Shown here: positions 12,705 to 44,120 of the stretch, one piece after another
Numbering within the stretch: position 1 is the first letter of the stretch
Layout: each line of letters starts with the position of its first letter
Assembly: GCA_017516075.1 (NCBI GenBank)
Contig: JAFWDS010000021.1
Coordinates: 17,151 to 81,150, forward strand
Direction of reading: 5' to 3'
Origin: Candidatus Saccharimonadota bacterium
Lineage (GTDB): Bacteria > Patescibacteriota > Saccharimonadia > Saccharimonadales > Saccharimonadaceae
DNA: 64,000 bases
Translations under genes and position numbers: made by a program
Notes under the pieces: model-generated
What the model saw: the letters and a program-made list of their open reading frames with translations, nothing else
Database searches by the model: none
What the model was told of the DNA's origin: nothing

Positions 12705-14593
12705 TGTATTCTATTTTCTCTTTTACGTTTAATCGGATCAAGTTGTCTCTTGCGTAATCTCAAAGACTTCGGTGTAACTTCGAGAAGTTCATCATCCAAG
12801 AGAAAATCCAAACACTGCTCTAGAGATAGCTGTGTGTATGGCGTTAACTGAATTGCCCCATCCGATGCGTGCGTCCGCATATTTGTCAGCTGTTTTTCGC
12901 GACAAATATTAATGTCCAGGTCATCCTTTTTATTGGAAAGCCCCACAATCATTCCCTGATACACTGGCACTCCTGGCGGAATAAACAGAATCCCGCGTGC
13001 CTGCGCCGAATCCAACGCATACGCAGTGGACACGCCATCTTCAAATGAAATCAATGCACCATTGCGCTCCGGTTTATAGCGATTCTCCACCGGGCGATAT
13101 CCAGATGGAATCGAGGACATTATCACGGTGCCCTTCGTTGCGGTAAGTAGACTATTGCGCAGCCCAATCAGTGCCCCAGTAGATATTTCATACACAAATC
13201 TAGTCGTACCAGATGTTGTCATATCTTGGCTTTTGAGTTCGGCTTTACGGATACCTAGCTCCTGTGATACCGCGCCTACAAAATCCGGTGCCACCTCGAT
13301 AGTCAAATCCTCAATCGGCTCTTGTTTTACGCCGTCAATCTCGCGATACACCACTTCTGGTCGTCCAACCTCAAGCTCGTATCCTTCTCGCCTCATCGTT
13401 TCAATCAAAACTGATAGATGTAACTCTCCGCGCCCTGACACCTTATACCCAAGTCCATCGGGCTGCAGTTTCAAGGCAATATTGGTCTCGAGCTCACGCT
13501 CTAACCTCTCAGCGATTTGTCGTGAAGTCGTAAACTCGCCTTCACGCCCCTTAAGCGGCGAGGTATTCGGCCCGATATAGATAGATAGAGTTGGCGCCTC
13601 AAGCTCGATTGTCGGCAACGCCTTAGGATTATCGCCAGTCGCAATCGTATCACCGATATTTGCCTCAGCTACACCGGTAATTGCCACAATATCCCCCGCA
13701 ATCGCCTCTTGCACCTCCTCCTTAGCAAGACCTTTGTAAATAAACAAATTGTCTATCTTAGCTCGCTTCTCGACGGGTCCTGACGTCGCAGTTTCCCCCA
13801 TCCTCGCAGTGACTCGGCTGGGGGTCCCCCCAGCGACGTCACCCGTCGATGGAGTATGTAATATAGTCACACTTTGGTTCTTTTTCAACTTTCCACTAAA
13901 AATCTTCCCAATACAATATTTCCCAAGATAATTATCACCAGCGAGTGCCGCCACAAGTAATTGCGCCGATTCGGAATCCGCATCCACCGAAGGTGCCGGA
14001 ATGTCGTTGATAATTGATTCAAAAATCACATGTAAATCATCGTCTAGATCGGTAGTTTTTCCGGCACGCCCTTCGCGTGCTATCGCATAATACACTGGGT
14101 AGAATAGCTGCGACTCATCTGTAGCCAGCTCCAAAAATAGCGACTCTACCTCACTCAAAACTTCATCAATTCTAGACCCAGGCTTGTCAATTTTATTTAT
14201 CACTACTACCGGCTTCAGCCCCAGCGAAAGCGCTTTTGACAACACGAATTTCGTCTGCGGCATCGGTCCCTCCTGCGCATCTACGATCAAAAGAACCCCA
14301 TCCGCCATATTCAAAGTCCGTTCTACTTCACCCGAAAAATCTGCATGCCCCGGCGTGTCGATGATATTTATCTTGTATCCATCATAATATACACAAGTCT
14401 GTTTGGCGGTAATCGTAATTCCCCGTTCATGCTCCTGGTCCATCGAATCCATAATCAGCGTTTGTGACATTTCTGCTTGATTCTCGCGAAAAGTATGCGA
14501 CTGCTTAAGAAGTCCATCCACGAGCGTGGTCTTACCATGGTCGACGTGTGCAATTATCGCCACATTCCGAATTCTATCTTTATTTAAAACCAT
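12698..14593 (-). CDS. typA: Translational GTPase TypA/BipA with in-frame palindromic insertion
   Basis: IRNVAIIAHVDHGKTTLVD, ERGITI, NIIDTPGHADFSGEVER, NKID, VSGRGELHL, LEVTPKSLRLRK. Confidence 0.95.
   Translation of the reverse strand: MVLNKDRIRNVAIIAHVDHGKTTLVDGLLKQSHTFRENQAEMSQTLIMDSMDQEHERGITITAKQTCVYYDGYKINIIDTPGHADFSGEVERTLNMADGVLLIVDAQEGPMPQTKFVLSKALSLGLKPVVVINKIDKPGSRIDEVLSEVESLFLELATDESQLFYPVYYAIAREGRAGKTTDLDDDLHVIFESIINDIPAPSVDADSESAQLLVAALAGDNYLGKYCIGKIFSGKLKKNQSVTILHTPSTGDVAGGTPSRVTARMGETATSGPVEKRAKIDNLFIYKGLAKEEVQEAIAGDIVAITGVAEANIGDTIATGDNPKALPTIELEAPTLSIYIGPNTSPLKGREGEFTTSRQIAERLERELETNIALKLQPDGLGYKVSGRGELHLSVLIETMRREGYELEVGRPEVVYREIDGVKQEPIEDLTIEVAPDFVGAVSQELGIRKAELKSQDMTTSGTTRFVYEISTGALIGLRNSLLTATKGTVIMSSIPSGYRPVENRYKPERNGALISFEDGVSTAYALDSAQARGILFIPPGVPVYQGMIVGLSNKKDDLDINICREKQLTNMRTHASDGAIQLTPYTQLSLEQCLDFLLDDELLEVTPKSLRLRKRQLDPIKRKRENRIQN
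13770..13849. mobile_element. Intragenic palindromic element (GGGTGAC...GTCAGGACCC type) in typA
   Basis: tcgacggg(tcc)tgacgtcgc / gcgacgtcacccgtcga; encodes STGDVAGGTPSRVTARMGETATSGPVE. Confidence 0.8.
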
Positions 14594-14685
14594 AAAAGAT
14601 ATTATACCACTTTTTTGCTAAAATGCCAATCCTATCAATCCTGCTAATCTCGGCAATACGTAGCTTCTCGCGAACGCTTAACGTG

Positions 14686-14711
14686 AAAAAGGGCCTCTAG
14701 ATAGAGACCCT
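14686..14711 (-). terminator. Intrinsic terminator
   Basis: - strand agggtctcta-tc-tagaggccct-tttt downstream of 14755 ORF. Confidence 0.65.
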
Positions 14712-14754
14712 CTAATTGATGCTTACGGACAAAACATATCAAAGACTTTACGAT

Positions 14755-15492
14755 TTACTCAAGCTCCTCCAGGATTCTGGTGATAAAAGCTCTATCATCT
14801 TCGTCTAGCATAGACATATCGATACTCTCGATGAATTCGTCCAAAGAAACGCCACTTGTACCACCATGGTCGATGATTTGCGCTAACGTCATGATATCCT
14901 CATAACGACCGGTGTAACCAATTTCTTTGACGAATTGCTCTGACAAACAATTGATATCACCACCGGCACACTCGAAGTCATCGATGAATCTTTCAAGACC
15001 AATATACCTGCTAGCCGATACTATGTCATCCATTGGGATGTTTTCGACTAAGGTGTCAGCCGAAATAGCTTCCGGCAAAGTCGCCAAGTTTGCCAAAAAC
15101 TTGTCTTCGTGCTCCACTAAGAACTTTTTCAGATACTTTACATTTCTGCGACTACAACGCCTTCCCTTCAGAACTTTGTTTGAATCAAGCCCCCTTTCAA
15201 CTAATTCACCCAGGTGTTCCCAGACGAAATCATCAGTCATTCTGCTAGCTATTTCTTCCATGTCAATTATGGCATCGTGCGCCATCAGAAGATCGTAATT
15301 GTAAAAGATATCTTCCGGCGTCAGGCCTCGCAGTATAATCGACCGATCGAATCCGCATTCCAGAAATGTTTTGAGGTTTAAGCTCATGTCGTAATGAACA
15401 TCCTCCGGAAAACCTTCATCCTCTAATCGTCTAGCTAAGTAGTCAAAATGTTCCTGTGCTCTTGCGATTTTTTCGAGATTCTTGCTGTCCAT
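14755..15492 (-). CDS. Acidic hypothetical protein (orphan-like)
   Basis: Long ORF with own terminator; AGGGGG SD-like site before ATG 15492. Confidence 0.7.
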   Translation of the reverse strand: MDSKNLEKIARAQEHFDYLARRLEDEGFPEDVHYDMSLNLKTFLECGFDRSIILRGLTPEDIFYNYDLLMAHDAIIDMEEIASRMTDDFVWEHLGELVERGLDSNKVLKGRRCSRRNVKYLKKFLVEHEDKFLANLATLPEAISADTLVENIPMDDIVSASRYIGLERFIDDFECAGGDINCLSEQFVKEIGYTGRYEDIMTLAQIIDHGGTSGVSLDEFIESIDMSMLDEDDRAFITRILEELE

Positions 15493-15590
15493 AGCATACC
15501 CCCTAAAAAGATCTTTGTCCCCAACCAACAACAATACAATTGTACCACATTTCTCCTAAAAAATCAAGATTTCGTGCTATAATTATAGCT

Positions 15591-15794
15591 ATGGCAAATC
15601 GCAAAAATCACCTCAACCCGAATCAAGTTTACGAGCCCCAACGCTGTTGGGTAGGCGATTCTCATAAAATCTGCTACGCTACAAAAGAAGAAGCCGAGCT
15701 CGCCGCGAGGGTCGCCGAGTACGACCACGGCGCCCCAGAACTCTCTGTTTATAAATGCGAATACGGCAACCACTGGCATCTTAGCTCAAAATAA
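15591..15794 (+). CDS. Small hypothetical protein (C-x4-H-x-H putative metal-binding motif)
   Basis: TGCTATAAT 7 nt before ATG; YKCEYGNHWHLSS C-terminus. Confidence 0.65.
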   Translation: MANRKNHLNPNQVYEPQRCWVGDSHKICYATKEEAELAARVAEYDHGAPELSVYKCEYGNHWHLSSK

Positions 15795-15956
15795 AGCTAT
15801 GCATCTGGAGAAGTAAAACAACGTACTGCTCGCCCTAAGTACTTATCATAGTCACGTGTACCAGGACAAACAAATGAATTATCTAAACGTAAACTATAGG
15901 CACTGACAGAATTTTTTCCTGTAGATGAATAATAAGTGCCATATATGCCACGATTC

Positions 15957-17759
15957 TTAAGGAGAATGGGTAGATAAGCATCGAATAGAAGCGCCAGCGA
16001 CCTTGACACTATATGCTAAACCAGCACTAAAATTATCTTCTGCGACGACTAGATGGTAAGAATGGAGTTCGTCTTTAGTAGTGGATGACCAGTAAATACT
16101 CCCCGAGCCACGCCTCATTGCCGAGGCTTCATAATAAAAGCCAGAATAAAGATAATTATTAGGAAATTTTCTGAATTCTCTATTTACGGCAAATGTATCA
16201 CTACCGCTAATCTGAGAACTAGAATAAATAAAACCGAGAAGAATCGAGAATTCGCCAGACTCGCCACCAGACGGGATATGCCATCCTTCTGGACAAAGCG
16301 AAGTGTTAGAGACACTAGTATCACTCGAAGCGTGCGGAGCAGTATCTGCAATTACGGCCGCCCAAGTATAATAATTGCCATAACTATACATACCTGCATT
16401 AGTGGTGTTATTAACGGCATCAGTAGTAGTAGGTTCCTGTGGGCGATTTTCGGACGCAGATTGGTTATTCCAGTTATTATATCGCGGCATGCGGTAAGCC
16501 GGATAGCTATCGGGGCCAATACTTATGGTGTCGTTGCTGCCATCATAACTATACAAGCTGTTAGCTGAATAATTAACAGAAATTCCTGTACTTTCCGCAT
16601 TGGCCAAACCTCCAAAGTTCCCATAAGTAGCAGATGTGCCATAGCCTTGAGCTAAAGCACCATCGGAGTTATGTTCGGCAGTATTCTCCAATCTCAGATT
16701 TTCAACCATCCAACAATTGCCATCGGCGAGTTTAGCCACAGCGTAGGTCTCATTATCTCGTAAATCGGTCAAAGCGGTCACGGCTCCAACTGGCATAGTG
16801 GTATTATTCGGGCAAGTCCATCCTTGTAGACTACCAGCAGATTCCACCCAATGCGCATAAAGCGACAGACCACTATTGTTGCCAGAATAAGCACCTTCGG
16901 TGAATTCTATGTATTCCTGTGGTCCGAGAAATCCGGTACTATCAGAATAATCAAAGGTCTTGCTCCACCCAGCAAAGCCATATCCTGCGCGTGAGAAGTT
17001 AGATGCAAGAAGAGTAGCAGATGTAGGAGAAACGCCATCGGTAGTTCCAGACTCCGGAATAGTCTGACATCCCATAGTCCCCTCAACGTTAGAGCCATTT
17101 GGATAGTAGCAAATTTTACCAGCTTCGGTGGCTTGCGGGGTAGGCGGTACTTCGCTATTCGGATGCACTAAAGTATACCTCACCTTCCCTTGATAAGTCC
17201 CAGCCTGTTGTGTAGGAGAAACAAATATTGCATAAGTAGATTGTATAGTAGAACCAATCGTATTATCAGTCTGTGCTGCAAATGTCGCAACTTGTGTATA
17301 TGTACTAGGTACAGTCCTATAGCTTCCAAATCCATTTAGTATTGTTGGAGCATAAGTTCCTTCTACTGCACTTAGTTTCATTGCCCAGTTAGATGTATTT
17401 CCACTTGTAGCAGTACCAGTTATTATATTAGAAGGAGCAGGAGTATCATTTCCTTGATACACCATTTCTGTATTACCATATGTATCTTCACTATATCCTA
17501 TTGCATATACACTATATCCATCTTTATCATTACAAAATACATTAATATTTGTGAGTCCAATGTCTGATTCATATTCATTATTACGAATAGTAGCTGTATG
17601 TTCCGTATTACCACTAACCGCTTCAGACATACTACAAGACACTGGTACAGTCACATTTACTACGTCTATTACGTCGTCGGCGAAAACGCTGTGCGCAAAA
17701 ACCAACCCAGCAAATAATACAAATAACACCAATAATGCTCTACACCTCGCATTAACCAT
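15957..17759 (-). CDS. Secreted FISUMP-domain surface protein (paralog 4)
   Basis: N-domain ~96% identical (nt) to paralog 2; FISUMP motifs; start reassigned to ATG 17759. Confidence 0.8.
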   Translation of the reverse strand: MVNARCRALLVLFVLFAGLVFAHSVFADDVIDVVNVTVPVSCSMSEAVSGNTEHTATIRNNEYESDIGLTNINVFCNDKDGYSVYAIGYSEDTYGNTEMVYQGNDTPAPSNIITGTATSGNTSNWAMKLSAVEGTYAPTILNGFGSYRTVPSTYTQVATFAAQTDNTIGSTIQSTYAIFVSPTQQAGTYQGKVRYTLVHPNSEVPPTPQATEAGKICYYPNGSNVEGTMGCQTIPESGTTDGVSPTSATLLASNFSRAGYGFAGWSKTFDYSDSTGFLGPQEYIEFTEGAYSGNNSGLSLYAHWVESAGSLQGWTCPNNTTMPVGAVTALTDLRDNETYAVAKLADGNCWMVENLRLENTAEHNSDGALAQGYGTSATYGNFGGLANAESTGISVNYSANSLYSYDGSNDTISIGPDSYPAYRMPRYNNWNNQSASENRPQEPTTTDAVNNTTNAGMYSYGNYYTWAAVIADTAPHASSDTSVSNTSLCPEGWHIPSGGESGEFSILLGFIYSSSQISGSDTFAVNREFRKFPNNYLYSGFYYEASAMRRGSGSIYWSSTTKDELHSYHLVVAEDNFSAGLAYSVKVAGASIRCLSTHSP

Positions 17760-17817
17760 AACCCTATTATAACACAAATTTTAAATATGCTATAATAAAA
17801 TTATCAATGGAGGAAAT

Positions 17818-18372
17818 ATGAATAAAAAACAGCAAGACTGGGACAAATACTTTATGGAAATTGCCGAGGCGGTTTCCATGAAATCCAAAGACCCTTCCAG
17901 CAAAATGGGTTGCGTCATAGTAGACAAGAACAAACGCGTCGTCTCTACTGGCTACAATGGTTTAGTCCAGGGTTCCCAAGAATCCAAACTGACCTTGTCC
18001 GAGCGCCCTATGAAATATTATTTTGCCATTCATTCCGAGATGAACGCTCTGATTTTTGCGCATCAAGATCTCACTGGCTGCACCGTTTACAATCGCGTCG
18101 CCACTTGTGAGAATTGTCTCAAATACTGTCTTCAGGCTGGCATCAAACGCTTTGTTTACAAAGAGCTCCGCGTGCATTCCTATTCTTCCGACCCCAAAAA
18201 ATCCATGACCAACATCGACACCGACGAAGCCGTCGTGCGCCTCCTCGCTTCTATGCCAGGTGTCGAGACTCTCAATTTATCTAATGGCAAAACTTACATC
18301 GAAGATATCATCGATTCCTACCCTGCCGATTCCCCCGAGCACGCCCGCCTCACCCAATGGATCAAATCATGA
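17818..18372 (+). CDS. dCMP deaminase (cytidine/deoxycytidylate deaminase family)
   Basis: SKDPSSKMGCVIV, STGYNG, HSEMNAL, TCENC Zn motifs. Confidence 0.85.
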   Translation: MNKKQQDWDKYFMEIAEAVSMKSKDPSSKMGCVIVDKNKRVVSTGYNGLVQGSQESKLTLSERPMKYYFAIHSEMNALIFAHQDLTGCTVYNRVATCENCLKYCLQAGIKRFVYKELRVHSYSSDPKKSMTNIDTDEAVVRLLASMPGVETLNLSNGKTYIEDIIDSYPADSPEHARLTQWIKS

Positions 18373-18872
18373 AGCAAAAGCAAAAGAGCATCAACAAAGA
18401 TTTTTGGCTTTGGTTTGGCGGAGCCTCACTGATTTTGATTTTAATAATCTCATTTCTGGCAATTCCCTATGCAAACAATAATTCAGGATCGCAAATTCCT
18501 ACTGAAACCACCAAACCAACCACTAAAACAGAAACCACCAAAACAGAAACAACCAATTCGGAGCCTACATCCGAAACCACCGAAACTCCAGAGCCGACGC
18601 CAACACCAACTCCGGCATCAACACCGGAATCGTCGCCAGAACCCGCTCAGACTCCTGCCCAAACTTACACCACCCCATCCACCACTTCCTCCTGCCACCA
18701 CGAAGAAGCTGGTCGTTGCTGGGACGACCTAGAAGACGAAGCCTATTCCGCCGGACAATACGACAGACAGTTTGGCTATTACGGCGCCACCTTAGAATAT
18801 GCCGATGATTGCAATGCCCTGTGTCGCGAAATCATCGAAGACGCTTACGACGAAGGCTGGTACGATTTTTAA
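18369..18872 (+). CDS. Membrane-anchored Pro/Thr-rich extracellular protein with small Cys-containing C-domain
   Basis: ATGA overlap with upstream stop; TM helix; TETT/PT repeats. Confidence 0.7.
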   Translation: MKQKQKSINKDFWLWFGGASLILILIISFLAIPYANNNSGSQIPTETTKPTTKTETTKTETTNSEPTSETTETPEPTPTPTPASTPESSPEPAQTPAQTYTTPSTTSSCHHEEAGRCWDDLEDEAYSAGQYDRQFGYYGATLEYADDCNALCREIIEDAYDEGWYDF

Positions 18873-19538
18873 TCACCATACAATTTCGCTCATCCCATTT
18901 GCTTTCAAAAACTCATTGCATTTCGAAAACGGTCGGCTCCCAAAGAACCCATTATAAGCCGACAAAGGCGACGGATGCGCCGACTCCAAAACCAAGTGCT
19001 TCGAGGTATCAATTAGCACTTTTTTGTTCCGCGCGTCTCTCCCCCAAAGAATAAACACTAGATGCGGCCTCTTCTCGTTCAAATATTTAATAGTTTCGGT
19101 TGTAAAAATCTCCCAACCCTTCCCGCTATGCGATTTTGGTCGATGTGCTTCCACGGTCAGAACGGTATTTAAAAGTAACACTCCCTGCTTTTGCCAATTA
19201 GACAAACTTCCGCGCGGATTGGCATGTTTACCAATATCCGCATCAATTTCCTTGTATATATTTATTAGACTCGGCGGTATCGGCTGCGAATTTGGCACCG
19301 AAAACGCCAATCCTTCCGCCGCTCCAGGTGTATGGTACGGGTCTTGTCCTAGTATCACCACTTTCACTTCATCGAGATCTGTCATGAACGCCCGAAACAC
19401 CAACTCCTTCCGCGGATAAATTGTTTTCTTCTCGTATTCTTCGTGCAAAAATGCAGATAATTCCTTAAAATACGGCTTTTCAAACTCACTCTTCAAAAAC
19501 GGCTTCCAACTCTCATGCATAAATTGATTATAATTCAT
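18873..19538 (-). CDS. ung: Uracil-DNA glycosylase (family 1)
   Basis: VILGQDPYH, GLAFSV, PPSL.NI, QGVLLLNT, HPSPLSA; start reassigned to ATG 19538. Confidence 0.95.
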   Translation of the reverse strand: MNYNQFMHESWKPFLKSEFEKPYFKELSAFLHEEYEKKTIYPRKELVFRAFMTDLDEVKVVILGQDPYHTPGAAEGLAFSVPNSQPIPPSLINIYKEIDADIGKHANPRGSLSNWQKQGVLLLNTVLTVEAHRPKSHSGKGWEIFTTETIKYLNEKRPHLVFILWGRDARNKKVLIDTSKHLVLESAHPSPLSAYNGFFGSRPFSKCNEFLKANGMSEIVW

Positions 19539-19693
19539 ATTTCTTTTTTTCGAAACATTTTGAAACTGCCCGATAAAAATTACAACAGTCACGGATGAGA
19601 ATCTGATACTGAAATATCAGGGCGAATCCGCCTGACCTGTTGTAATTTTTATGCGGCGCACGTTTCAACGTTGAAAAAAAAGAAATATGAATT
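19532..19693. repeat. Intergenic palindromic element, family C, overlapping ung start
   Basis: 16-bp IR ataaaaattacaacag/ctgttgtaatttttat plus 19-bp outer IR; near-identical inverted copy at 56573-56652. Confidence 0.85.
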
Positions 19694-19707
19694 TCTGATG
19701 AACAATA

Positions 19708-20733
19708 TTAATAAAGCGGAGGGTTTTTAAATAAATGCTCAATAACATTTCTCATTGTTTTTAATACATTTTTATCACGGAATTCAGAAATACCAGCGAT
19801 ACTCTTCCCTGCATCCTTGGACGAAGGACCACAATGATAAATAGTTTCAGAATCGGTACCATAGTCGATTACGATAAATCTATCATGTATTATCCCACGA
19901 GTTTTATAAAACTCTATTTGGATTTCAGGAAACTCTCGCCTAAAAGCATCGATGTCATTCTTATGCAAATAGTGCCCAACATTATCACTAAAAACCACAA
20001 CGCGCACATTGGCGTGAATTGTGGATAGTAGATTTAGGGTATTAATATCAATATAATCATCTATTATATAAATACTCGTTTTCGCCCGGTTGTAAACTCT
20101 TTGATACGTGCTTTTTGCTTCAATTATTTCTCCATTCATAAAAATAATTTCATTAGATTCTTTCAATTTACCAAAAGTTAATAGGAATGGCGCAATTTCG
20201 TCTTTTGTTATAGTTTCTTTCATTCTGTTCTCAACTACATATAAACGATTATCTAAGCTATTGATTCTGTTGTCGATATTTGGATAAGTGCCATTAAGAT
20301 AGAAATAATAATCTTTCAATGCTTTAAAAGTCCTAATCAAAGCCTTACTTTGCTTTGTAGCTAGTTCACCCTTTAAAACCGTCATCAACATATAAATACC
20401 TTGCTCGGTGAAAGCGTATGGTAAGTAGGAACGCCCACCTTTCACGCCCTTTTGTTGGATCGAGGTCAAATTTTTTGACCTCGATAATTCAACAATCTCA
20501 TCCCGACTTAATCTAAACATAAAATCAGAATCAAATTTTGCTATATTATTTTTAACCTGCTGATTAAATGCTTTTGTCGAATAGCCATATATTCTAGCGA
20601 GGTCATAATCTAGTATAACTTGTAGGCCTCTGATTTCGTGTATTATGCCTTTAATACTATGTTCATTAATTAGAATTAGACTTGATAGTTTCTTCGCCGC
20701 TTCTTTTTTAGAATTAGTATCGTTTTCTTTCAT
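19708..20733 (-). CDS. ORF6N-domain protein with C-terminal PLD-like (HDRF) domain
   Basis: IRGLQVILDYDLARIYG..TKAFNQQVKNN..KF..DFMFRL; GGR.YLPYAFTEQG; IYIIDDYI, IHDRFIVID, YHCGPSSKDAG. Confidence 0.75.
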   Translation of the reverse strand: MKENDTNSKKEAAKKLSSLILINEHSIKGIIHEIRGLQVILDYDLARIYGYSTKAFNQQVKNNIAKFDSDFMFRLSRDEIVELSRSKNLTSIQQKGVKGGRSYLPYAFTEQGIYMLMTVLKGELATKQSKALIRTFKALKDYYFYLNGTYPNIDNRINSLDNRLYVVENRMKETITKDEIAPFLLTFGKLKESNEIIFMNGEIIEAKSTYQRVYNRAKTSIYIIDDYIDINTLNLLSTIHANVRVVVFSDNVGHYLHKNDIDAFRREFPEIQIEFYKTRGIIHDRFIVIDYGTDSETIYHCGPSSKDAGKSIAGISEFRDKNVLKTMRNVIEHLFKNPPLY

Positions 20734-20824
20734 ATGGGCAAAGTAACATAAGGAGGCAAACTATTCAACCCCCCACTAGTCAAAAAAACGCAACATAAGA
20801 ATTATAATATGGTAAAATTTGAGT

Positions 20825-25516: not shown

Positions 25517-25519
25517 ATT

Positions 25520-26611: not shown

Positions 26612-26613
26612 TT

Positions 26614-32918: not shown

Positions 32919-32932
<14 letters not shown>
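32369..32932 (+). CDS. queH: Epoxyqueuosine reductase QueH (DUF208)
   Basis: LLMHVCCAPCS, YNPNIHP, C..CY..RL, FTTTLLVSP, YMQKYCGCIFS; adjacent to queA/tgt. Confidence 0.9.
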
Positions 32933-35452
<2,520 letters not shown>

Positions 35453-35467
35453 ACATCCATAAGTCTC

Positions 35468-35496
35468 TTGACAAATCTTACCTTAAGCGCTATAAT
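35468..35496 (+). promoter_or_regulatory. Consensus sigma70 promoter for FISUMP paralog 5
   Basis: TTGACA-17 nt-TATAAT. Confidence 0.8.
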
Positions 35497-35576
35497 GAAA
35501 GTAGCTTAATTAATCTGGATAAGGTCATACCAGTTAACAAAAAGCCAAAACAAAAACAAACAGAAAGGTCAAGAAA

Positions 35577-37367
35577 ATGAAAATCAAACGGCGAGTTATC
35601 ATTCTTGGTAGCCTCATTGGCACCACGTTTATACAAGGCATCGCATTAATGTCTACGCATGCACAGGCGGAAAATAGCGTTGTCGATAATGTCACTATCA
35701 CCGTTCCTTCTGCTTGTTCGATGAGCGCCAATGGTATGACCAGCCACAACGCCGAAATTAATAACGGCACCTATCGAGACAATATCGGTACTACTACCTT
35801 TCAAGTATTTTGTAATGACGAAGGAGGTTTTTCTGTTTATGCTGTAGGCTTTACTGGCGAAGAGTTTGGTAGCACTGTTCTCACTAGCTCAGCGTTAGGC
35901 TCAAATCACGATATCATTACGGGTACTGCCACATCAGCCGGTACACCAGATGTCTCCAACTGGGCTATGAGAGTTCAGACCAATTCCGGCGCAGCCTATC
36001 CAGTAGCTATTGAAAACGATTTTGATGAGTATCATGTAGTACCAGACGATTATACCAGAGTAATCAGCCGTGAGAATCCTACAGATATCGGTGCGTCCGC
36101 AACTGGTGCTTCGTTTACTACGACCTATTCGGCTTATATTAGTAAAACTCAACTTGCCGGCACTTACACTGGGCAAGTTAAATATACTCTTATTCATCCC
36201 GCCAGCGAGCTCCCGATAGAACCTCAAGTCACTCCTTCTGGATACATCGGCTACTATCCTAACGCGTCAAACGTCACAGATACCATGAGTGACCAACCTG
36301 TCGAAACCACTGATACTGGTGCAACTCTTTGGGGTTCCAATTTCAAACGCAAAGGCTACGGTTTTGCCGGCTGGTCCTCGACATACGACTATTCTGATCC
36401 AAATGGTTTCTATGGGCCTAATGCAGATATTGATTTCACGGCTGGTACTTATACTGGTGATAACGACGGCTTATCTCTATATGCTTATTGGATCAAATCT
36501 GCTGGGACTTTTCAAGAATGGGACGGCTGTAGTAGTCTAAATGTTGGTGACGTTACTGCTCTCACCGACTCACGCGATGACGAAACTTACGCTGTCGCCA
36601 AGTTAGCTGATGGCAATTGCTGGACTATCGAAAACCTTCGTCTTGGTCATGATGCAACTATTACCCCCGCAGACACTCAATCCACCAATGACGCATTTGG
36701 CGGCGCCTTCACTACTCTCGCCGAAGCCGAAACCAACACCTTTAATAACACTGGCACGGCTAATACTCTTTATAGTTCATCCAATATTACTGGTAGCTAT
36801 GCCGAATACCGCTACCCGCGTTATAACGACAACAACACCAGACTAGGTTCGGTTGCAAACGAAATGCAAGATCCAAGCGATAATATTAGAAGCTACGGTC
36901 ATTATTATACTTGGTCTGCCGCTATCGCCAATACCGAATACTTTTCGCAAAACAATCAAAACGCCACTACCGCATCACTTTGCCCAAGCAGTTGGACTCT
37001 GCCGGTCGCCGGTAATGATACTAGGAGCTCTAGTAGTGATTATCGCATTCTAGCCGAATCTATCATTGGTACAACTCCAAACGATACTTGGACCACTAAT
37101 CGTTCCAGATATTATAATGTAGATGGTGGCACCAATGGTACTATAGCGTCAAAGCTCATGAGAAGCTTCCCTGCTAACTTTATCTATTCTGGCAGCATTA
37201 CCGGCTCTTCCAATTCCGGAAAAGGTGTCAGTGGATACTATTGGTCGGCTACGTCTGCTAGTAGTAACTATGCTTATAGCTTTGGCCTCACTGCCACTAC
37301 AGTCTATCCAGGCACCAACTTCAACACCAAAACCGAAGGTGTCTCCATCCGCTGTGTCAAAAAATAG
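35577..37367 (+). CDS. Secreted FISUMP-domain surface protein (paralog 5)
   Basis: Same architecture; LADGNCWTIENLRL, YGHYYTW, CPSSWTLP, YYWSAT, SIRC. Confidence 0.8.
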   Translation: MKIKRRVIILGSLIGTTFIQGIALMSTHAQAENSVVDNVTITVPSACSMSANGMTSHNAEINNGTYRDNIGTTTFQVFCNDEGGFSVYAVGFTGEEFGSTVLTSSALGSNHDIITGTATSAGTPDVSNWAMRVQTNSGAAYPVAIENDFDEYHVVPDDYTRVISRENPTDIGASATGASFTTTYSAYISKTQLAGTYTGQVKYTLIHPASELPIEPQVTPSGYIGYYPNASNVTDTMSDQPVETTDTGATLWGSNFKRKGYGFAGWSSTYDYSDPNGFYGPNADIDFTAGTYTGDNDGLSLYAYWIKSAGTFQEWDGCSSLNVGDVTALTDSRDDETYAVAKLADGNCWTIENLRLGHDATITPADTQSTNDAFGGAFTTLAEAETNTFNNTGTANTLYSSSNITGSYAEYRYPRYNDNNTRLGSVANEMQDPSDNIRSYGHYYTWSAAIANTEYFSQNNQNATTASLCPSSWTLPVAGNDTRSSSSDYRILAESIIGTTPNDTWTTNRSRYYNVDGGTNGTIASKLMRSFPANFIYSGSITGSSNSGKGVSGYYWSATSASSNYAYSFGLTATTVYPGTNFNTKTEGVSIRCVKK

Positions 37368-37403
37368 CTATCGTCTATATAACACATATGTTATAATAAG
37401 AAC

Positions 37404-39239
37404 ATGAAAAAGGCTGTGCTTATTGATGTTGGGTTTATTACCGCTATGCTTATTTCTGCACAAATACTCACATCTAGCGTTTCTCGTGCCGAAAGCGCTA
37501 CGGCTAATGCTACAGTGACAGTAGCAGAGGCCTGCACTATGACTGCTACGATAGACTCGGCTCATTCTACTATAGTAAACCCTGGGCAATATGTAGACGA
37601 GATAGGACAAACTACACTTAAAGTAGTATGTAATGATGCAGAAGGATATGCTATATATGCAGTAGGAAATGCTAATAATGAATATGGGAATAATAAACTA
37701 CTAGCGAGTCTAGGCGGAACACTTAATCCAACTTACGATATAGCTACTGGTACCGCTACTTCTGGGAATACTTCTAACTGGGCGATGAAAGTAAATGCTG
37801 TAAGTGGTGCTTATACCCCTACTATTCAAAACAGTTTTGGTAGTTATCACGAAGTACCAAATGCTTACATGAAAGTAGCTGAGTATGCTTCTAATACCGA
37901 TACTTCTACTGGCTCTTCTATTACTTCTACTTACGCCGCTTTTGTAAAGCCCGATCAACCAGCCGGAAACTATAATGGAAAAGTCAAATACACCATGGTA
38001 CATCCAGTTAGCGCAAATTCGGTTGCTCCGCAAACTACTGGGGCAGGACAAATCTGCTATTATCCAAATGGACAAAACGTAGAAGGCACTATGGGCTGCC
38101 AAACAGTGTCCGCATCCGATACTTCAATTACGCTGCTAGCTTCAAACTTTTCCCGCGAAGGCTATGGCTTCGCGGGATGGAGCAAGACTTATGATTATTC
38201 CGATGGCACCGGCTTCTTCGGACCACAAGAAGACATTACCTTCACAGCTGGTGAATACACTGGAGATAATTCAGGACTTTCGCTCTATGCTCATTGGATT
38301 AAGTCGGCTGGCAACCTCCAGAGCTTCTCTTGCCCGAACAATACTACTATGTCGATAGGCTCCGTCACCGCCCTTACCGACCAACGCGATAACGAAACCT
38401 ACGCAGTAGCAAAACTCGCCGACGGCAACTGCTGGATGATAGAAAACCTCCGCCTAGAAAGCACTAATGTTGATAACTCTACTGGTTTACTAGCGGAGGG
38501 GTATGGCACTAGTTCAACTTATGGTAACTTTTCTGGCTTAGCTGTGGCGGAAAGTACCAATTTTTCTGACACCACCGCTGCAAATAGTCTTTATTATTCT
38601 GGCACCCAGGAAGGTACCGCTACTATAAATATAGGTACATTGGATGGTCCCGGCTATCGTATGCCGCGTTACAACAATACAAATACGTCTGCTAGGGCTA
38701 CCAATAACCCAACAACTAATAATAGCGCTATGTATTCTTATGGTAATTATTATAATTGGCACGCCGCTATAGCAGACCTTATTTACAACGACACGCTCAA
38801 CCAATCTACTACTGGCACTTCGCTCTGCCCTAATAGTTGGCACTTGCCAACAGGTGGAACAATTACCACAACTGTGAACGTTACAGGAGATCCAACCACC
38901 TGGCGCGAATTCTACAATCTAGGGTACACTATTATGGGTAGTGTAGCAAACGATAGCGTGGCTCAGGCAGATGCATATTACGATAATAATACTACCAATG
39001 CAAATAACGATACTGCTACCAAAGCTTTTCGTAAATACCCTAATAACTTTATTTATTCCGGCAACTATAATAATTCGTCGGTAGTTAATCAGGGTAAATA
39101 TGGTCTTTATTGGTCGTCTACTTCATATAGTTATAATCTTGCCGACTATCTGTACGTTAGTAACTCTAACGTTTATCCGGGTACGCGTTATTACAATAAG
39201 AGCTACGCCAGAAGTATTAGATGTCTTAGATCATCCTAG
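37404..39239 (+). CDS. Secreted FISUMP-domain surface protein (paralog 6)
   Basis: Same architecture; LADGNCWMIENLRL, YGNYYNW, CPNSWHLP, LYWSST, SIRC. Confidence 0.8.
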   Translation: MKKAVLIDVGFITAMLISAQILTSSVSRAESATANATVTVAEACTMTATIDSAHSTIVNPGQYVDEIGQTTLKVVCNDAEGYAIYAVGNANNEYGNNKLLASLGGTLNPTYDIATGTATSGNTSNWAMKVNAVSGAYTPTIQNSFGSYHEVPNAYMKVAEYASNTDTSTGSSITSTYAAFVKPDQPAGNYNGKVKYTMVHPVSANSVAPQTTGAGQICYYPNGQNVEGTMGCQTVSASDTSITLLASNFSREGYGFAGWSKTYDYSDGTGFFGPQEDITFTAGEYTGDNSGLSLYAHWIKSAGNLQSFSCPNNTTMSIGSVTALTDQRDNETYAVAKLADGNCWMIENLRLESTNVDNSTGLLAEGYGTSSTYGNFSGLAVAESTNFSDTTAANSLYYSGTQEGTATINIGTLDGPGYRMPRYNNTNTSARATNNPTTNNSAMYSYGNYYNWHAAIADLIYNDTLNQSTTGTSLCPNSWHLPTGGTITTTVNVTGDPTTWREFYNLGYTIMGSVANDSVAQADAYYDNNTTNANNDTATKAFRKYPNNFIYSGNYNNSSVVNQGKYGLYWSSTSYSYNLADYLYVSNSNVYPGTRYYNKSYARSIRCLRSS

Positions 39240-39257
39240 TACCGCTTAATCGTTCTT

Positions 39258-39544
39258 AATCAATCCTCTCTCTATTTTCAGAACATTTACTAGATTTGGC
39301 ACGTTGTAGTCTCTACGATTTTTCAGCGTATAAGCGACCCCCTTGAGTATTACTTAAACAAGCATCGCATAAGGGTGGCAAGAATCGTAAAACGCCATAA
39401 GAACGACCGCAATTCTGCATAAAGCGCTCACATCTGCCGGATTTTGTCAAAACTATCAACAGAACAAGTCTAGCGAAGAAAACTAATGGAGTTTGTTCTA
39501 AGGAAGTAGCAAGTCAAGTTCTGAAAATAGAGTGAGGGTTGATT
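39258..39544. repeat. 27-bp imperfect inverted repeat enclosing ~230 bp of partly self-complementary sequence
   Basis: aatcaatcctctctctattttcagaac 39258-39284 / gttctgaaaatagagtgagggttgatt 39518-39544. Confidence 0.7.
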
Positions 39545-39718
39545 GGAAGCGGCATAATTTTTATGCGCAGATTCCAGAGCAAATCGCCAGATTTATATGT
39601 TTTAAAAACGAACATTCTTTGGGAATTAAAATCTCCTACAGGTAACGGAAAGCATACGATTCAAAATAATCTAAGAGAAACCGATGGACAATCAGATAAC
39701 GTTATTCTAGATTATTAA
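39536..39718 (+). pseudogene. Remnant resembling CdiA C-terminal tRNA-nuclease-like (PD-(D/E)XK) domain
   Basis: Manual translation GLIGSGIIFMRRFQSKSPDLYVLKTNILWELKSPTGNGKHTIQNNLRETDGQSDNVILDY*; PD...WE.KSP.G.G..TI..NL...QS.NVI.D pattern; stops on both sides. Confidence 0.5.
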
Positions 39719-39757
39719 GCGCACAAGGCACTAATCCTAGTGTGTATTTTATGTTAT

Positions 39758-41170
39758 CTATTTCAGATACTGCCACACTGGGCCAGTTGGAGTGTCTTTG
39801 ACGGTAATCCCCTGCTCTGCCAATAAGTCTCTAATCTCATCTGATTTAGCATATTCTTTCGCTTCGCGCGCTTTCTGACGCTCAACAATCAGCTTCTTAA
39901 CTTCCTCAGAAATCTCCGGCGAATCAGCAATTAATCTTAGTCCAAACAACTCATCAACCTTCTGCCAATCCTCCATCGATAGCTCTGAATTGTCGATAAT
40001 CGCGAATGCCTCGGCAGAATTGAGATTATTGTTGACGGAGGAGAGTATATTTTGGGCGGGTGACGGGCATGGAGGGGGTCCCCCAAAAATGCCGTCATTT
40101 TTGGGGGAGGAAAATGCCCGGCAGGACCCGCCCAGAGATGTGCTATCGACTTTCTGATATAGCAGCGCTATCCTATTCCGCCAATTCAACCTGCGATTCT
40201 TCGCAGACTCCAATGATTCAAATGTAAAATTCCTCGTCCCTTGATAATGCCCAGACAGCACCCACATTTTATAATCCATCGGCGAAAACCCACGCTCTGC
40301 CAAGTTGCTCAGAGAATAAGTATTACCTAGCGATTTCGACACCTTCTCTCCATCAATCGTAATAAAATCGCAATGCAGCCAATAGCGAGAAAGCTTCCTC
40401 CCAGTCATTGCATGCATTTCAGCTATTTCATTGCTATGATGTACCGGAATGTGATCTATGCCGCCTGTATGAATATCAATCGGCTCACCAAGTTCCTTAT
40501 GAATAATCGTAGCACACTCTAGATGCCAGCCAGGATACCCAGGTCGCCCCAAATAATCCCAACGCATCGCATGTTTTTCGCCTGGCTTAATGAACTTCCA
40601 GACTGCAAAATCCGAAATATTACGCTTCTCATCCGAAAATCCTACTCTAGCACCAGCCTGTAATCCAGCTAGGTCCAATTTAGCAAAATCCGCATACTCA
40701 GGAAATCTAGAAGTATCATAATATATGCCATCGGTTGTTTCATAGGTAAAACCATTCTCAGTCATCTTATCTACAGCATCCATATCGGCTTCGATGTAAT
40801 CCGTCGCTCTCGCCCAAATCTCCGGTTGCAAAAGTTCCAAACTATCATAATCTTTGCGGAACTTCTCTATATAATAATCCGCCACTTCATACACGCTTTT
40901 CCCTTCGCGCTCGGCCCCTTTTTCTAGTTTATCCTCACCCGAATCTGCATCAGATACCAAATGCCCTACATCTGTGAGATTCAATACTCTCTTTACTTTA
41001 TAACCATTTGTGCGCAGAGCTCTCACTAGCAAATCCCAATAGATATAGGCTGTGAGATTTCCAATATGAGCTTCGGCGTATACCGTCGGCCCACAGGTAT
41101 ATATTTTCACAACATCATCCCGAGGCTTGAACTCCTCTAGTTCGCGCCCCAAAGTATTATAGAGTTTCAT
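39758..41170 (-). CDS. cysS: Cysteine--tRNA ligase with in-frame palindromic insertion
   Basis: YTCGPTVY...HIGN, NLTDVGH, DFAVWK, GYPGWHLECA, DIHTGGIDH..VHHSNEIA, KVSKSLGN. Confidence 0.95.
   Translation of the reverse strand: MKLYNTLGRELEEFKPRDDVVKIYTCGPTVYAEAHIGNLTAYIYWDLLVRALRTNGYKVKRVLNLTDVGHLVSDADSGEDKLEKGAEREGKSVYEVADYYIEKFRKDYDSLELLQPEIWARATDYIEADMDAVDKMTENGFTYETTDGIYYDTSRFPEYADFAKLDLAGLQAGARVGFSDEKRNISDFAVWKFIKPGEKHAMRWDYLGRPGYPGWHLECATIIHKELGEPIDIHTGGIDHIPVHHSNEIAEMHAMTGRKLSRYWLHCDFITIDGEKVSKSLGNTYSLSNLAERGFSPMDYKMWVLSGHYQGTRNFTFESLESAKNRRLNWRNRIALLYQKVDSTSLGGSCRAFSSPKNDGIFGGPPPCPSPAQNILSSVNNNLNSAEAFAIIDNSELSMEDWQKVDELFGLRLIADSPEISEEVKKLIVERQKAREAKEYAKSDEIRDLLAEQGITVKDTPTGPVWQYLK
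40053..40134. mobile_element. Intragenic palindromic element (GGGTGAC/CAGGACCC type) in cysS
   Basis: tgggcgggt/acccgccca, cgggcat/atgcccg, cccccaaaaatg/catttttggggg; encodes LGGSCRAFSSPKNDGIFGGPPPCPSPAQ. Confidence 0.85.
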
Positions 41171-41891
41171 TCGCCATCACCTCCTTTAAAATCGCCGGGA
41201 TTTTGGTGTATTTATCGCGCGAAACACCATGGCGTCCAGCAGTCCTAATCGCAGTAATATTTGGATTCTGTTTGAGAAGTTGCGGTATATTGTGTGGTGC
41301 AATCAACTTGTCATCCTTACCATATATTATTACTGTCGGTACTTTCACTTTAGCCAGCACACCATAATTCTTGCGGTCCATCACAATGTTCTCCATCGAA
41401 CCAATAAATGCTTTTTCTTTTAAGATGTCTTCACTACGCGCCGCTACGGATTTTTTGAATGCCTCCATGCCTAGCAAGAATAACGGATTATCGTAATCTT
41501 TTTCAGTGTAAATCGGTGGCGAAATCAAAATCAGTTTAGCTACCTCACTAGGATAAAAGCTAGCATATCTCGTTACGATAAAAGTCCCCAGCGAATGCCC
41601 CACTAGCACCAAAGGTACCTCGGATTTGAGCTCTAGGATTGCATTCCGGAGAGCTTCTAACTGCTCGTCATAATTATAATTCAAAGCATCATCCTTCAAA
41701 GATAATCCAGAACCTAGTAAATCCAGCTTCACAAACCTAACATCCTTCAAAGATTCTTCTGCCTCAAAGAATTCGTGTGCCTCATTATATGTTGTCGAAT
41801 CGGAAGCAATTCCGTGAATCATTACTACGCATACTTTTGGTTCTCCACTTCTACAAACATCATAAGTATTAGTTAGAATCAATTTCTTCAT
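41157..41891 (-). CDS. Alpha/beta hydrolase
   Basis: VMIHGI, DLLGSG, GHSLG nucleophile elbow, IYGKDD, GRH. Confidence 0.88.
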   Translation of the reverse strand: MKKLILTNTYDVCRSGEPKVCVVMIHGIASDSTTYNEAHEFFEAEESLKDVRFVKLDLLGSGLSLKDDALNYNYDEQLEALRNAILELKSEVPLVLVGHSLGTFIVTRYASFYPSEVAKLILISPPIYTEKDYDNPLFLLGMEAFKKSVAARSEDILKEKAFIGSMENIVMDRKNYGVLAKVKVPTVIIYGKDDKLIAPHNIPQLLKQNPNITAIRTAGRHGVSRDKYTKIPAILKEVMANETL

Positions 41892-42871
41892 AACAGCTCC
41901 CCTAATAATTCTGGCACAATCCGAACCAAATCCTGTACGACTTCTTCATAGGAAACATCATAAGTACGAAATCCAGAAGCAAAAGCATGTCCACCACCAC
42001 CAAAATACCCGGCGACTTTCTCCGCAATTGGCGCATCCGAAGCTGTGCGCACTTTACCAGTTAATTTACCATCTGGATAAGTCTTGATTGCTACAGCTAC
42101 TTTCACACCCTCCACCAATCTCATCTCCTCCAAAATCAAGACATTCGGGTTGTATTCATCAGAATATTCGCGGATGTCATCCCACGGAATATGCACTGTA
42201 GCCAGTTCCCCATCTAATGAATATTCAATTCTTTTAATTAAATCCGCCTTGTAATCTAAAATTCTTTGAGATTTTTTCATATATTCGCGGCGTCTTTCTT
42301 CTAACTCCGAAATATTTGCTCCTAGTCGTGACAAATCTGCGCAAACTTCAAAAGTATCCGCTGTCACCGAAGCACTAGTTAGCCCCAAAGTGTCAGATAA
42401 TAATCCTTGGAACATTGCCTCCGCCGCATCCTTGCCAATTTCAAGCTCCTGGTCTTTTGCAATCCGATAAATCAGTTCCGCACATGCCGGCCGTACTTCA
42501 ATAATGCTTTCATGTGGGAATGCTATATCATCTGGAGTCTCATGGTGATCTATCACTAAAATTGGTGCTGAGTATAACTTATTCCGAATCGCTGTATCGT
42601 CTAATAGCTTTGATAGCAATACTTGCGCGGCTGTATCTACAATAATGTACCCATCTGCTTTATAATCAAACTCGTTCGTAATTCTGGACCAATCGGAAAA
42701 ATAATGCAAGTATTTCGGGATATCTACAGGGCAATACAAAGAAACATCCTTAGCGTCCAGCAAGTAGTCTAGCGCCAAAGCCGACCCCAAAGAATCTCCA
42801 TCCGGATTCTCCGCCTGGATAATGCAAATCTTCTCTTTATCTTCCAGAAATTTTGTAAATTTATCGTACAT
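41888..42871 (-). CDS. DHH/DHHA1 phosphoesterase (NrnA-like)
   Basis: NPDGDSLGS, IVDTA, IDHH, LSDT, FGGGGHAFASG; start reassigned to ATG 42871. Confidence 0.9.
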   Translation of the reverse strand: MYDKFTKFLEDKEKICIIQAENPDGDSLGSALALDYLLDAKDVSLYCPVDIPKYLHYFSDWSRITNEFDYKADGYIIVDTAAQVLLSKLLDDTAIRNKLYSAPILVIDHHETPDDIAFPHESIIEVRPACAELIYRIAKDQELEIGKDAAEAMFQGLLSDTLGLTSASVTADTFEVCADLSRLGANISELEERRREYMKKSQRILDYKADLIKRIEYSLDGELATVHIPWDDIREYSDEYNPNVLILEEMRLVEGVKVAVAIKTYPDGKLTGKVRTASDAPIAEKVAGYFGGGGHAFASGFRTYDVSYEEVVQDLVRIVPELLGELL

Positions 42872-42877
42872 ATCTAA

Positions 42878-43032
42878 ATTATAGCACATCGATGGGTGGC
42901 GACAACATTTCAGCGAAGGGGGGTTCGGAGCGCGGCAGCGCGAGAGGTAGCGCGCGAGCCCCGTGGCGACGGGAGCGAGCGACGCGCCCCCGAGCGAAAT
43001 GTTTCGACAGGACCCATCGAAAGTGCTATAAT
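42878..43032. mobile_element. Intergenic family A element between two divergent promoters
   Basis: Arms attatagcac/gtgctataat, tcgatgggt/acccatcga, aacatttc/gaaatgtt; core shared with tatD and tgt copies. Confidence 0.85.
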
Positions 43033-43038
43033 ATAAAT

Positions 43039-43470
43039 ATGACTATTTTTCGTGCAGACAAGAAATTTGAACGATTCGAAGACGTCACGCCAAAATTATT
43101 AAAAAAAGAAGGCGTCAAACTTCTCTTATGTGATTTAGATAATACTTTGAGACTTCATTCCGAAAAGGAACCAGCCGATGAGCTCCAAGAGTGGGTCAAA
43201 GAATGCAATTCCGCTGGCACTAGAATAGTAGTTATATCTAACAATGGCCGCAAAAAGATGATGCAAAAATTCTGCGAACCAATCGGCGTAGATTGTGTTT
43301 GGTGGGCCAAAAAACCCATGAGCACCAAACTCACCGAAGCAATGAAAGAATACAAAACCAAACCTAGCGAGACGGTCATGCTCGGTGACAAATGGTCTAC
43401 CGACGTCCTCGCCGCCAAATTTGCTCGCATCCGTGCTTGGCAAGTAGAACATCGAAAGGATGTGTTATGA
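43039..43470 (+). CDS. yqeG: YqeG-family HAD IIIA phosphatase
   Basis: LLLCDLDNTL, VISNN, AKKP, MLGDKWSTDV; start reassigned to ATG 43039. Confidence 0.85.
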   Translation: MTIFRADKKFERFEDVTPKLLKKEGVKLLLCDLDNTLRLHSEKEPADELQEWVKECNSAGTRIVVISNNGRKKMMQKFCEPIGVDCVWWAKKPMSTKLTEAMKEYKTKPSETVMLGDKWSTDVLAAKFARIRAWQVEHRKDVL

Positions 43471-44120
43471 GTGATAAACATGGGCAGGTGACGGCTCTAG
43501 AGGGGACGCCTCGCGAGAGCTCGAATGGAAGAGAGCAAGGCTCGGCAAGACCCGTCCAAACTATAACCGGTCCCACCATTCTTACAATTATTAGGATGGT
43601 GTTATCTATACTATTTATGGTATTCGTATTACTACCAGACACGTGGGCCAAAATCGTCGCGCTGGTCGTCTTTGTCATCGCCTGCATCACCGACAAAATC
43701 GATGGCATCTGGGCCAGAAATAGCAAACAGGTTACCGATCTCGGTGCTTTCCTTGACCCTTTAGCCGATAAAATGCTTACTAGTCTTGCTTTCCTCACTC
43801 TTGTTTGTCTCGGCATTGTACCAATTTGGGTATTTGCTATCATCTTAGTGCGCGATTATGCTGTAGATGGCATGCGAATGATGGCAGCGCGAGATGGTAT
43901 CACTATCGCTGCCTCGTTTTACGGCAAACTCAAAACCACCATTCAGATGATTGCGCTCATTATCCTTCTTCTTAATCTCATCGTCAACCTAGAATTCTTT
44001 ACCATCCTTGGCAATGTTGCTCTGTATTTAGCGCTTGCTCTTACTATCTTCTCAGGCATAGATTACCTATACAAAGGCTACAAAACAGTTATCAAAAAAC
44101 CTACGCAAAAAACGAAATAA
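43467..44120 (+). CDS. pgsA: CDP-diacylglycerol--glycerol-3-phosphate 3-phosphatidyltransferase with N-terminal palindromic insertion
   Basis: PTILTIIR, TDKIDGIWAR, GAFLDPLADK, RD..VDGMR, GKLKTTIQ; ATGA overlap with yqeG stop. Confidence 0.9.
   Translation: MSDKHGQVTALEGTPRESSNGREQGSARPVQTITGPTILTIIRMVLSILFMVFVLLPDTWAKIVALVVFVIACITDKIDGIWARNSKQVTDLGAFLDPLADKMLTSLAFLTLVCLGIVPIWVFAIILVRDYAVDGMRMMAARDGITIAASFYGKLKTTIQMIALIILLLNLIVNLEFFTILGNVALYLALALTIFSGIDYLYKGYKTVIKKPTQKTK
43481..43558. mobile_element. Degenerate intragenic palindromic element in the pgsA 5' end
   Basis: tgggcaggtgacgg...cggcaagacccgtcca vs cysS copy tgggcgggtgacgg...cggcaggacccgccca. Confidence 0.65.

Follow-up and report, generated by a model that had tools for sequence, protein, structure and literature searches.

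The described systems that come closest to the hairpin repeats analysed here are REP (repetitive extragenic palindromic) sequences and bacterial interspersed mosaic elements (BIMEs) with their REP-associated tyrosine transposases (RAYTs; PMC3333891), the Rickettsia palindromic elements (RPEs; reviewed in PMC10969869) and the attC sites of integrons (PMC5371416). We analysed a 64,000-nt stretch of a Candidatus Saccharimonadota genome (assembly GCA_017516075.1, contig JAFWDS010000021.1, positions 17,151 to 81,150 of the forward strand; hereafter the window), in which a family of short hairpin DNA repeats stands on a common, near-invariant bulged base, termed the foot. The foot is constant across at least ten phyla while the adjacent stems and core change, which is what the recognition site of a trans-acting factor looks like. 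Tentatively, and with a confidence that falls a little short of even, we read it as a conserved, strand-specific junction, putatively a recognition junction, of non-autonomous hairpin repeats that proliferate in genomes and have spread horizontally among phyla.

Like REP sequences, the present elements are multi-copy imperfect hairpins in which arm positions vary yet stay complementary. They carry a short conserved motif 5' of the hairpin foot (GTAG in REP, ACAU here), are frequently placed after genes, and retain a non-complementary stem position, an irregularity that in REP is needed for protein binding and cleavage (PMC3333891). REP sequences are, however, 30–40 nt long, compared with 65–125 nt here, where the irregularity consists of a 3-nt bulge and a purine mismatch and the 5' flank follows the consensus ACAU-SGRC instead of GTAG. 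REP sequences are also extragenic and lineage-specific, whereas about half of the present copies lie in genes, in frame, and the foot is shared between phyla; the genomes richest in copies have no RAYT or Y1 gene. RPEs are likewise palindromic repeats without a transposase that lie in frame in unrelated housekeeping genes and are apparently translated at permissive sites, and insertion with the frame kept is found here in TypA, TGT, CysS and PgsA and, in two actinobacterial genomes (G085 and G086), in E2, DnaX and NusA. Compared by description, RPEs differ in being ~150 bp long, confined to Rickettsia and built with one conserved peptide per family, whereas the present elements use both orientations, conserve a bulged, RNA-like junction and occur in many phyla.

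The attC sites share with the foot family an imperfect, structure-recognised hairpin with a conserved base, an active strand marked by extrahelical bases, a terminal structure that varies and differs greatly in length, a frequent position just past a stop codon and, in some cases, an orientation relative to replication, as sedentary chromosomal integrons keep the recombinogenic attC strand on the leading-strand template (PMC5371416). In contrast, the present copies are dispersed and also lie in genes, with no R boxes (RYYYAAC/GTTRRRY), cassette arrays or IntI, and this genome has one Xer-type gene. [quoted passage not shown] They differ in having TnpA, which is absent here, and distinct left and right ends rather than a single hairpin unit; moreover, their active strand lies on the lagging-strand template, whereas the top strand here would lie on the leading-strand template under the assumed polarity. 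From classical MITEs the elements are distinguished by flanks that are inverted and not direct repeats, and by the lack of a related multi-copy transposase-like open reading frame (ORF) in this genome. The foot family thus lacks defining features of each of its three closest relatives, being set apart from RPE by description.

Architecture and conservation of the foot

The foot comprises a 4-bp GGGU/ACCC helix, a 3-nt AGG bulge, a G-C pair, a purine·purine mismatch (A·G or G·A) and a C-G pair. The window contains four exact and two degenerate copies, the last of those given below being absent from the list in the original prediction that had been made for this DNA:

13775-13844, minus strand: exact foot element of 70 nt with a G5-N-C5 core; sense and in frame in domain 2 of typA; the outer stem extends to 13770-13849.
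34750-34872, plus strand: exact foot on a 123-nt element with a GC-rich multibranch core; sense and in frame in tgt.
40058-40129, plus strand: exact foot element of 72 nt (foot halves 40058-40064 and 40120-40129); antisense to cysS, a minus-strand gene, and in frame.
42894-43015, plus strand: exact foot in the GGC...GAC variant on a 122-nt element with a GC-rich core; intergenic, between divergent genes, followed by TGCTATAAT.
43486-43553, plus strand: degenerate copy with two foot substitutions (AGGTGAC ... GGCAAGACCC; ...AAGACCC); sense, at the 5' end of pgsA; outer stem 43481-43485/43554-43558.
12170-12291, minus strand: near-exact copy (GGGTGGC ... GACAGGCCC; ACCC changed to GCCC) with a GC-rich core; inside the ORF 11681-12508 (minus strand).

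The host ORFs stay open across the elements and belong to the Pfam families TypA/BipA, queuine tRNA-ribosyltransferase, CysS and CDP-alcohol phosphatidyltransferase; in CysS, the copy is located in the linker joining the catalytic and anticodon-binding domains. The original prediction had described a recurrent module GGGT-GAC...GTC-AGG-ACCC in four exact copies and a degenerate one in pgsA, sense in typA and tgt and antisense in cysS. The four exact copies were recovered where it had placed them and in the orientations it gave, and the pgsA copy was recovered as well, in sense orientation. The GAC...GTC form that it took for the module is seen in typA and tgt, but the commonest form is GAC...GGC, with an A·G mismatch.

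The pattern GGGTGRC-N(40-70)-CAGGACCC matched twice in the window, where 0.00 matches were expected, and CAGGACCC alone matched four times, compared with 0.57 expected. The genome-wide motif search that the prediction had proposed gave 19 matches in the 924-kb genome (43% GC) and 0 for the reversed-pattern control, which is above background; with a slightly relaxed pattern the count was 20. Shuffles and reversed-pattern controls rule out chance or low complexity as the source of the module.

To describe the structure, the foot region was aligned without gaps for 95 distinct copies from this genome (G000), eight congeners and one genome of the same order. The proposed structure paired 94.4% of the cells in this alignment, compared with 30–41% when the partners were slid by 1–3 columns, and two-sided changes were found in all 11 variable pairs outside the pattern-fixed foot. 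The covariation score was 0.574 versus 0.134 in shuffles, with none of the 500 shuffles reaching the observed value. The outer and inner stems vary by copy and covary strongly while the foot stays constant, in line with the earlier proposal that the bulge is kept under changing enclosed and outer stems. The foot mismatch in the genus set was A·G in 71 copies, G·A in 18, G·T in three, A·T in two, A·A in one and G·C in one; it flips as a pair (A·G to G·A and back), and the Watson-Crick A·T of typA and tgt is rare. A purine·purine mismatch is present in 90 of the 96 distinct genus copies (89 with A·G or G·A and one with A·A) and in 187/187 elsewhere, and the AGG bulge is invariant. Considering that the search pattern fixes the foot columns, copies were re-ascertained by their core. 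The foot was then exact in 62 of 69 copies, with the remaining seven one base off, and in 13 of 15 copies in an actinobacterium, indicating that the bulge is conserved in the larger set.

Extended outward, the consensus reads ACAU-SGRC-GGGU-GAC...GGC-AGG-ACCC-GYCS-AGAR. At least four different interiors occur under the foot, namely types of 68, 72 and 70/76 nt, each with a G5-N-C5...G5 clamp, and one of 123 nt whose core is multibranched and GC-rich, so that the foot is indeed a cap common to hairpins that otherwise differ. The GC-rich multibranch core is also found about 15 times in G000 without the foot, on long copy-specific stems.

Two other explanations of the motif were rejected. A kink-turn, with a 3-nt bulge followed by tandem sheared G·A/A·G pairs, is excluded because A·G and G·A alternate: the A required at position 1n is replaced by G in part of the copies (GAC/GGC versus GGC/GAC), and 2b is G. 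Avoidance of restriction at GGWCC sites was discarded in that no special depletion was found. Rfam 15 contained no match for the window elements (at the gathering threshold, and with E up to 10 on 39900-43200) or for 15 loci from other phyla, and no account of the family came up when the literature was searched for the motif and for repeats of this kind in Saccharibacteria or the candidate phyla radiation (CPR).

Distribution beyond Saccharibacteria

Metagenomes and IMG/VR were searched with a stricter pattern consisting of the foot and a G4-N-C4 clamp. At least 120 metagenome contigs carry it, with a GC content of 37–75% (most 60–75%), whereas 0 IMG/VR contigs match, giving no sign of carriage by phages. 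In an initial genome scan, roughly a third of the matches proved to be true elements on re-inspection. These are located in metagenome-assembled genomes (MAGs) or genomes labelled Polyangia, Nitrospirales, Planctomycetes, Omnitrophota, Clostridiales, Gammaproteobacteria, Solirubrobacterales and Krumholzibacteriota, as well as Daviesbacteria, Roizmanbacteria and Uhrbacteria. Sixteen such genomes have 2–55 exact copies each, compared with 0–1 in controls, and the stems match the GC content of the host, implying that the copies are resident and do not represent contamination. Within Patescibacteria, the family is patchy (19/301 sampled genomes), which fits horizontal spread. Many subfamilies have an inner motif in common, composed of CGCGCAG, a small hairpin and GAGCAC, with G/C covariation. 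In the two high-GC actinobacterial genomes mentioned above (labelled Solirubrobacterales; Actinomycetes), elements of either orientation occupy open frames: the linkers that separate the lipoyl, E3-binding and catalytic domains of the E2 acyltransferase, the tau linker of DnaX and the C-terminal region of NusA.

In one genome of 37% GC with 28 copies (G094; L408-L427), the foot hairpin lies inside a longer palindrome of ~135 nt (ATAAAAGTGTGTCCTTTATAGATGC ... GCCACTTTTTAAAGGACACACTTTTAT), whose upstream arm resembles a -35/-10 promoter and whose downstream arm resembles a U-tract terminator. A small RNA gene with its own promoter and terminator was rejected here: the flanks form the longer palindrome and are therefore not evidence for such a gene.

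The folded strand and its orientation

With the top strand defined as the one running from GGGU to ACCC, we compared the non-Watson-Crick stem positions in the 187 distinct elements outside Nanosyncoccus and found 117 G·T versus 24 A·C (p = 7e-16). In double-stranded DNA neither G·T nor A·C is a mismatch, so the excess of G·T indicates that the folded top strand is under selection, either as RNA or as single-stranded DNA, two states that the excess does not separate.

Orientation was studied in 60 regions of 5–20 kb (mostly 20 kb) around copies in the eight congeners and the same-order genome, comparing the strand of each copy with the local GC skew after masking the element. In Nanosyncoccus, the C-rich strand carries the top strand of 87 out of 98 copies, i.e. 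89% (p = 8e-16); the values are 71/79 for the relatives alone and 76/85 where |skew| ≥ 0.05. GC-rich-core elements show the same bias whether or not they have the foot (17/21), and 28 of the 30 young, near-identical copies already follow it. The rule is obeyed by all 18 antisense in-gene copies and by 29 of the 32 sense ones, indicating that skew predicts orientation better than transcription does. That orientation in Nanosyncoccus follows GC skew rather than transcription suggests a process that is linked to replication and acts at the DNA level. The sense direction is also preferred, though less strongly, with 26 sense versus 3 antisense among intergenic copies flanked by co-oriented genes and 32:18 inside genes; the independence from transcription that the original prediction had assumed is contradicted by these numbers.

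The skew bias could alternatively develop after insertion. Copies would then insert in random orientation, those with the stable hairpin on the lagging-strand template would be deleted quickly, and the foot would have no dedicated partner, being conserved by recent descent together with selection for a stable imperfect palindrome. With DNA folding parameters, the top-strand hairpin is predicted to be more stable than the bottom-strand hairpin in 96/96 copies, by 3.4 kcal/mol, which agrees with this explanation. Trinh and Sinden reportedly observed in 1991 that asymmetric palindromes are lost more frequently from the lagging-strand template. The presence of 89% of the top strands on the C-rich strand and the precedent of attC in sedentary chromosomal integrons (PMC5371416) also speak for it. 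We nevertheless consider bias arising after insertion improbable, as the young copies are already biased and the bias is absent in G094; in addition, descent and generic stability would be insufficient to keep 17 foot nucleotides and the purine mismatch identical across phyla amid the turnover of the stems.

A live rival to an action at the DNA level is a role in RNA. The foot would then be a functional RNA motif in transcribed elements, a site for a conserved RNA-binding protein or RNase, and the spread as DNA would be secondary; according to one model, it would be a single-cut RNase III-type signal or a hairpin protecting the 3' end, for which phage T7 processing hairpins and REP hairpins provide models. 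The excess of G·U-type wobbles on the top strand is consistent with such a role, and so are the cross-phylum conservation of purine-rich loops and inner loops (CGCGCAG ... GAGCAC) and the sense bias of in-gene copies. The intergenic copies of the genus, predominantly sense, typically lie 3–20 nt past the stop codon and just before TGnTATAAT, the position of a terminator or 3' hairpin. Conversely, about one third of the in-gene copies are antisense, and all 18 of these in the genus follow the skew rule, while in other low-GC lineages the intergenic orientation is random (11 same versus 13 opposite). A processing site within the typA, tgt or E2 mRNAs would be harmful, Rfam offers no match, and the patchy, multi-copy distribution among genomes is typical of mobile DNA. 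Taken together, we regard an RNA motif as possible but doubtful, and favour single-stranded DNA over RNA as the substrate only slightly.

Many intergenic copies are followed within ~8–12 nt by an extended -10 box, TGnTATAAT (window 43016-43040; L163, L167, L170, L172, L183, L193, L204), and these elements fill the entire gap between the upstream stop codon and the next promoter. The GC skew of these genomes is very strong, reaching about ±0.5 at third codon positions regardless of gene strand. Near dnaA (G000 C19 6069-6539; G004:C2; G007:C2; L200, L227-L236), where gene orientation diverges, only the magnitude of the skew shifts; in G007, its sign changes ~65 kb from dnaA.

Proliferation and residence in genes

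Near-identical copies are present at unrelated loci within single genomes, and 50 of the 98 Nanosyncoccus copies lie inside ORFs. All in-gene copies examined are in frame and free of stop codons in either orientation. In-gene copies are kept only where these conditions hold, and so are evidently read through as additional protein loops or linkers. In TypA, the loop between VKILH and KIDNLF is short and empty in ~40 congeners and filled in ~14, with the foot type restricted to this genome and G073.

The residence of the elements in open genes also bears on the possibility that they are small introns or bypassed mRNA segments, in which case their coding content would be irrelevant and the 3-nt bulge with the 4-bp helix would constitute half of a bulge-helix-bulge signal. 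The geometry of the 3' strand, with inner helix, 3-nt bulge, 4-bp helix and outer helix in succession, does match half of that motif. However, the second bulge is missing and the outer stem pairs directly, the in-gene copies examined are all in frame and stop-free, which is not a requirement of splicing, one third of them are antisense and many copies are intergenic. An intron of this type or translational bypass was rejected on the single bulge, the open in-frame copies and the antisense copies, and is in our estimate highly improbable.

Near-identical copies are mosaic, differing by whole modules such as the outer stem, inner stem or core. Some pairs share the same core yet show three compensatory differences in their inner stems; in others the interiors agree, but the outer stem is another one and A·G/G·A is swapped. 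This mosaic would be explained better by exchange between copies at conserved blocks than by point mutation and subsequent compensation. No direct target duplication is visible at the copies, and the bases adjoining the foot are mutually complementary, i.e. inverted.

Three further observations concern the insertion sites. The domain-2 loop of TypA (window 13770-13849; loci L001-L043) is an insertion hot spot, with at least five hairpin families adding 24–61 extra residues in ~14 of 58 congeners. Five copies terminate the ORF upstream of them with the TGA of their own GGGTGAC (L163:12789, L172:9882, L188:5784, L219:1875 and G000 C29:6969), so that the element supplies the stop codon and the original C-terminus is replaced. 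The foot-to-foot length modulo 3, determined for the 98 Nanosyncoccus copies, is evenly distributed in intergenic copies (14/18/16) and is 21/22/5 in genes; the two classes allowed in genes suggest a translated insertion unit without one fixed flank length.

Search for a partner enzyme and weighing of the evidence

A number of results weigh against the foot being a recognition junction used at the DNA level. The original prediction had suggested an HUH nuclease as the acting enzyme, but no Y1-HUH (PF01797) gene was found in G000, in any of the copy-rich congeners or, in other phyla, in the genomes with the most copies (G085, G087, G091, G094 and G098), while positive-control genomes including E. 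coli gave matches. Neither G000 nor G012 has a reverse transcriptase, and this enzyme shows no correlation with copy number; the one tyrosine recombinase of G000 (PF00589) is of the conserved Xer type, and there is no multi-copy transposase-like ORF in G000, where the large paralog family consists of surface proteins. Overall, the searched genomes yielded no candidate enzyme for the foot, and neither a target-site duplication nor an exact insertion boundary could be defined. Within Nanosyncoccus, the asymmetry of the stem mismatches is reversed (A·C 27 versus G·T 12) and lends no support to selection on the folded top strand; such a reversed excess would be expected from strong G-to-A pressure on the C-rich strand. 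The G-rich strand is taken as the leading strand, but this leading/lagging polarity is assumed, and in G000, G004 and G007 the GC skew keeps its sign across dnaA. There is no skew bias in G094 (15/28), where orientation is random relative to neighbouring genes too, so that the replication-linked bias is established for Nanosyncoccus only; the skew of the Solirubrobacterales chromosome is too weak to be used for orientation. Finally, the sense bias, which inside genes amounts to 23:8 elsewhere, and the elaborate conserved inner loops fit a role in RNA equally well.

An extra tyrosine recombinase or integron integrase was rejected as the partner, G000 having the single conserved Xer-type gene, and no neighbour gene recurs across 155 loci beyond the orthologous loci of related MAGs. 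As to the gene content of G000, its 47 paralogous surface-protein-like ORFs of ~550 aa (e.g. C13:40816-42471; also in the window) account for a sizeable share of the 0.92-Mb genome. In addition, a run of about ten neighbouring genes occurs in two diverged versions, on contigs C4 and C30 (e.g. C30:62196-68328 versus C4:14638-22952), which a segmental duplication could explain, as could the presence of a second strain in the MAG.

The original prediction was correct in its observation and understated it. Its interpretation, a recognition or cleavage signature for a trans-acting enzyme that acts more likely on DNA than on mRNA, is reasonable but only partly supported. The constancy of the foot across phyla argues for recognition, whereas cleavage found no support; the skew bias in Nanosyncoccus argues for DNA, whereas the G·T excess fits single-stranded DNA and RNA alike and the bias does not extend to G094.

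Biological implications

If the foot is a recognition junction, a putative trans-acting factor would read the top strand in its folded state, taking the bulge and the purine mismatch as identity marks, and recognition would act when the element is copied, inserted or retained. In Nanosyncoccus, the recognition step may be tied to replication direction, given that the stable hairpin of the top strand is found on the C-rich strand in the large majority of copies; this strand would be the leading-strand template under the usual polarity, which is assumed. The conserved blocks would also act as joints for exchange between copies. A broader proposal, which we consider unlikely though worth stating, comprises two forms. 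The elements could be cross-phylum structured elements without a dedicated transposase, with the bulged junction being read by the universal machinery of host replication or repair, which would copy them; alternatively, they could represent a new small structured RNA family whose genes behave as mobile DNA. In both forms, essential proteins of distant phyla would gain additional loops and linkers time and again.

Rickettsia is the best-known case of palindromic repeats that lie in frame in essential genes; here the phenomenon recurs, with one and the same 17-nt bulged junction, in CPR bacteria, Actinobacteria, Myxococcota, Nitrospirota, Omnitrophota and others. GGGUGRC ... GRCAGGACCC provides a sequence handle for annotating repeats that inflate or confuse the protein annotation of MAGs, and could help to find the factor that recognises bulged hairpins where the known hairpin transposases are absent. 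The same handle would be useful for understanding how selfish hairpins create protein linkers, and why their orientation tracks strand asymmetry in a genus of extreme skew.

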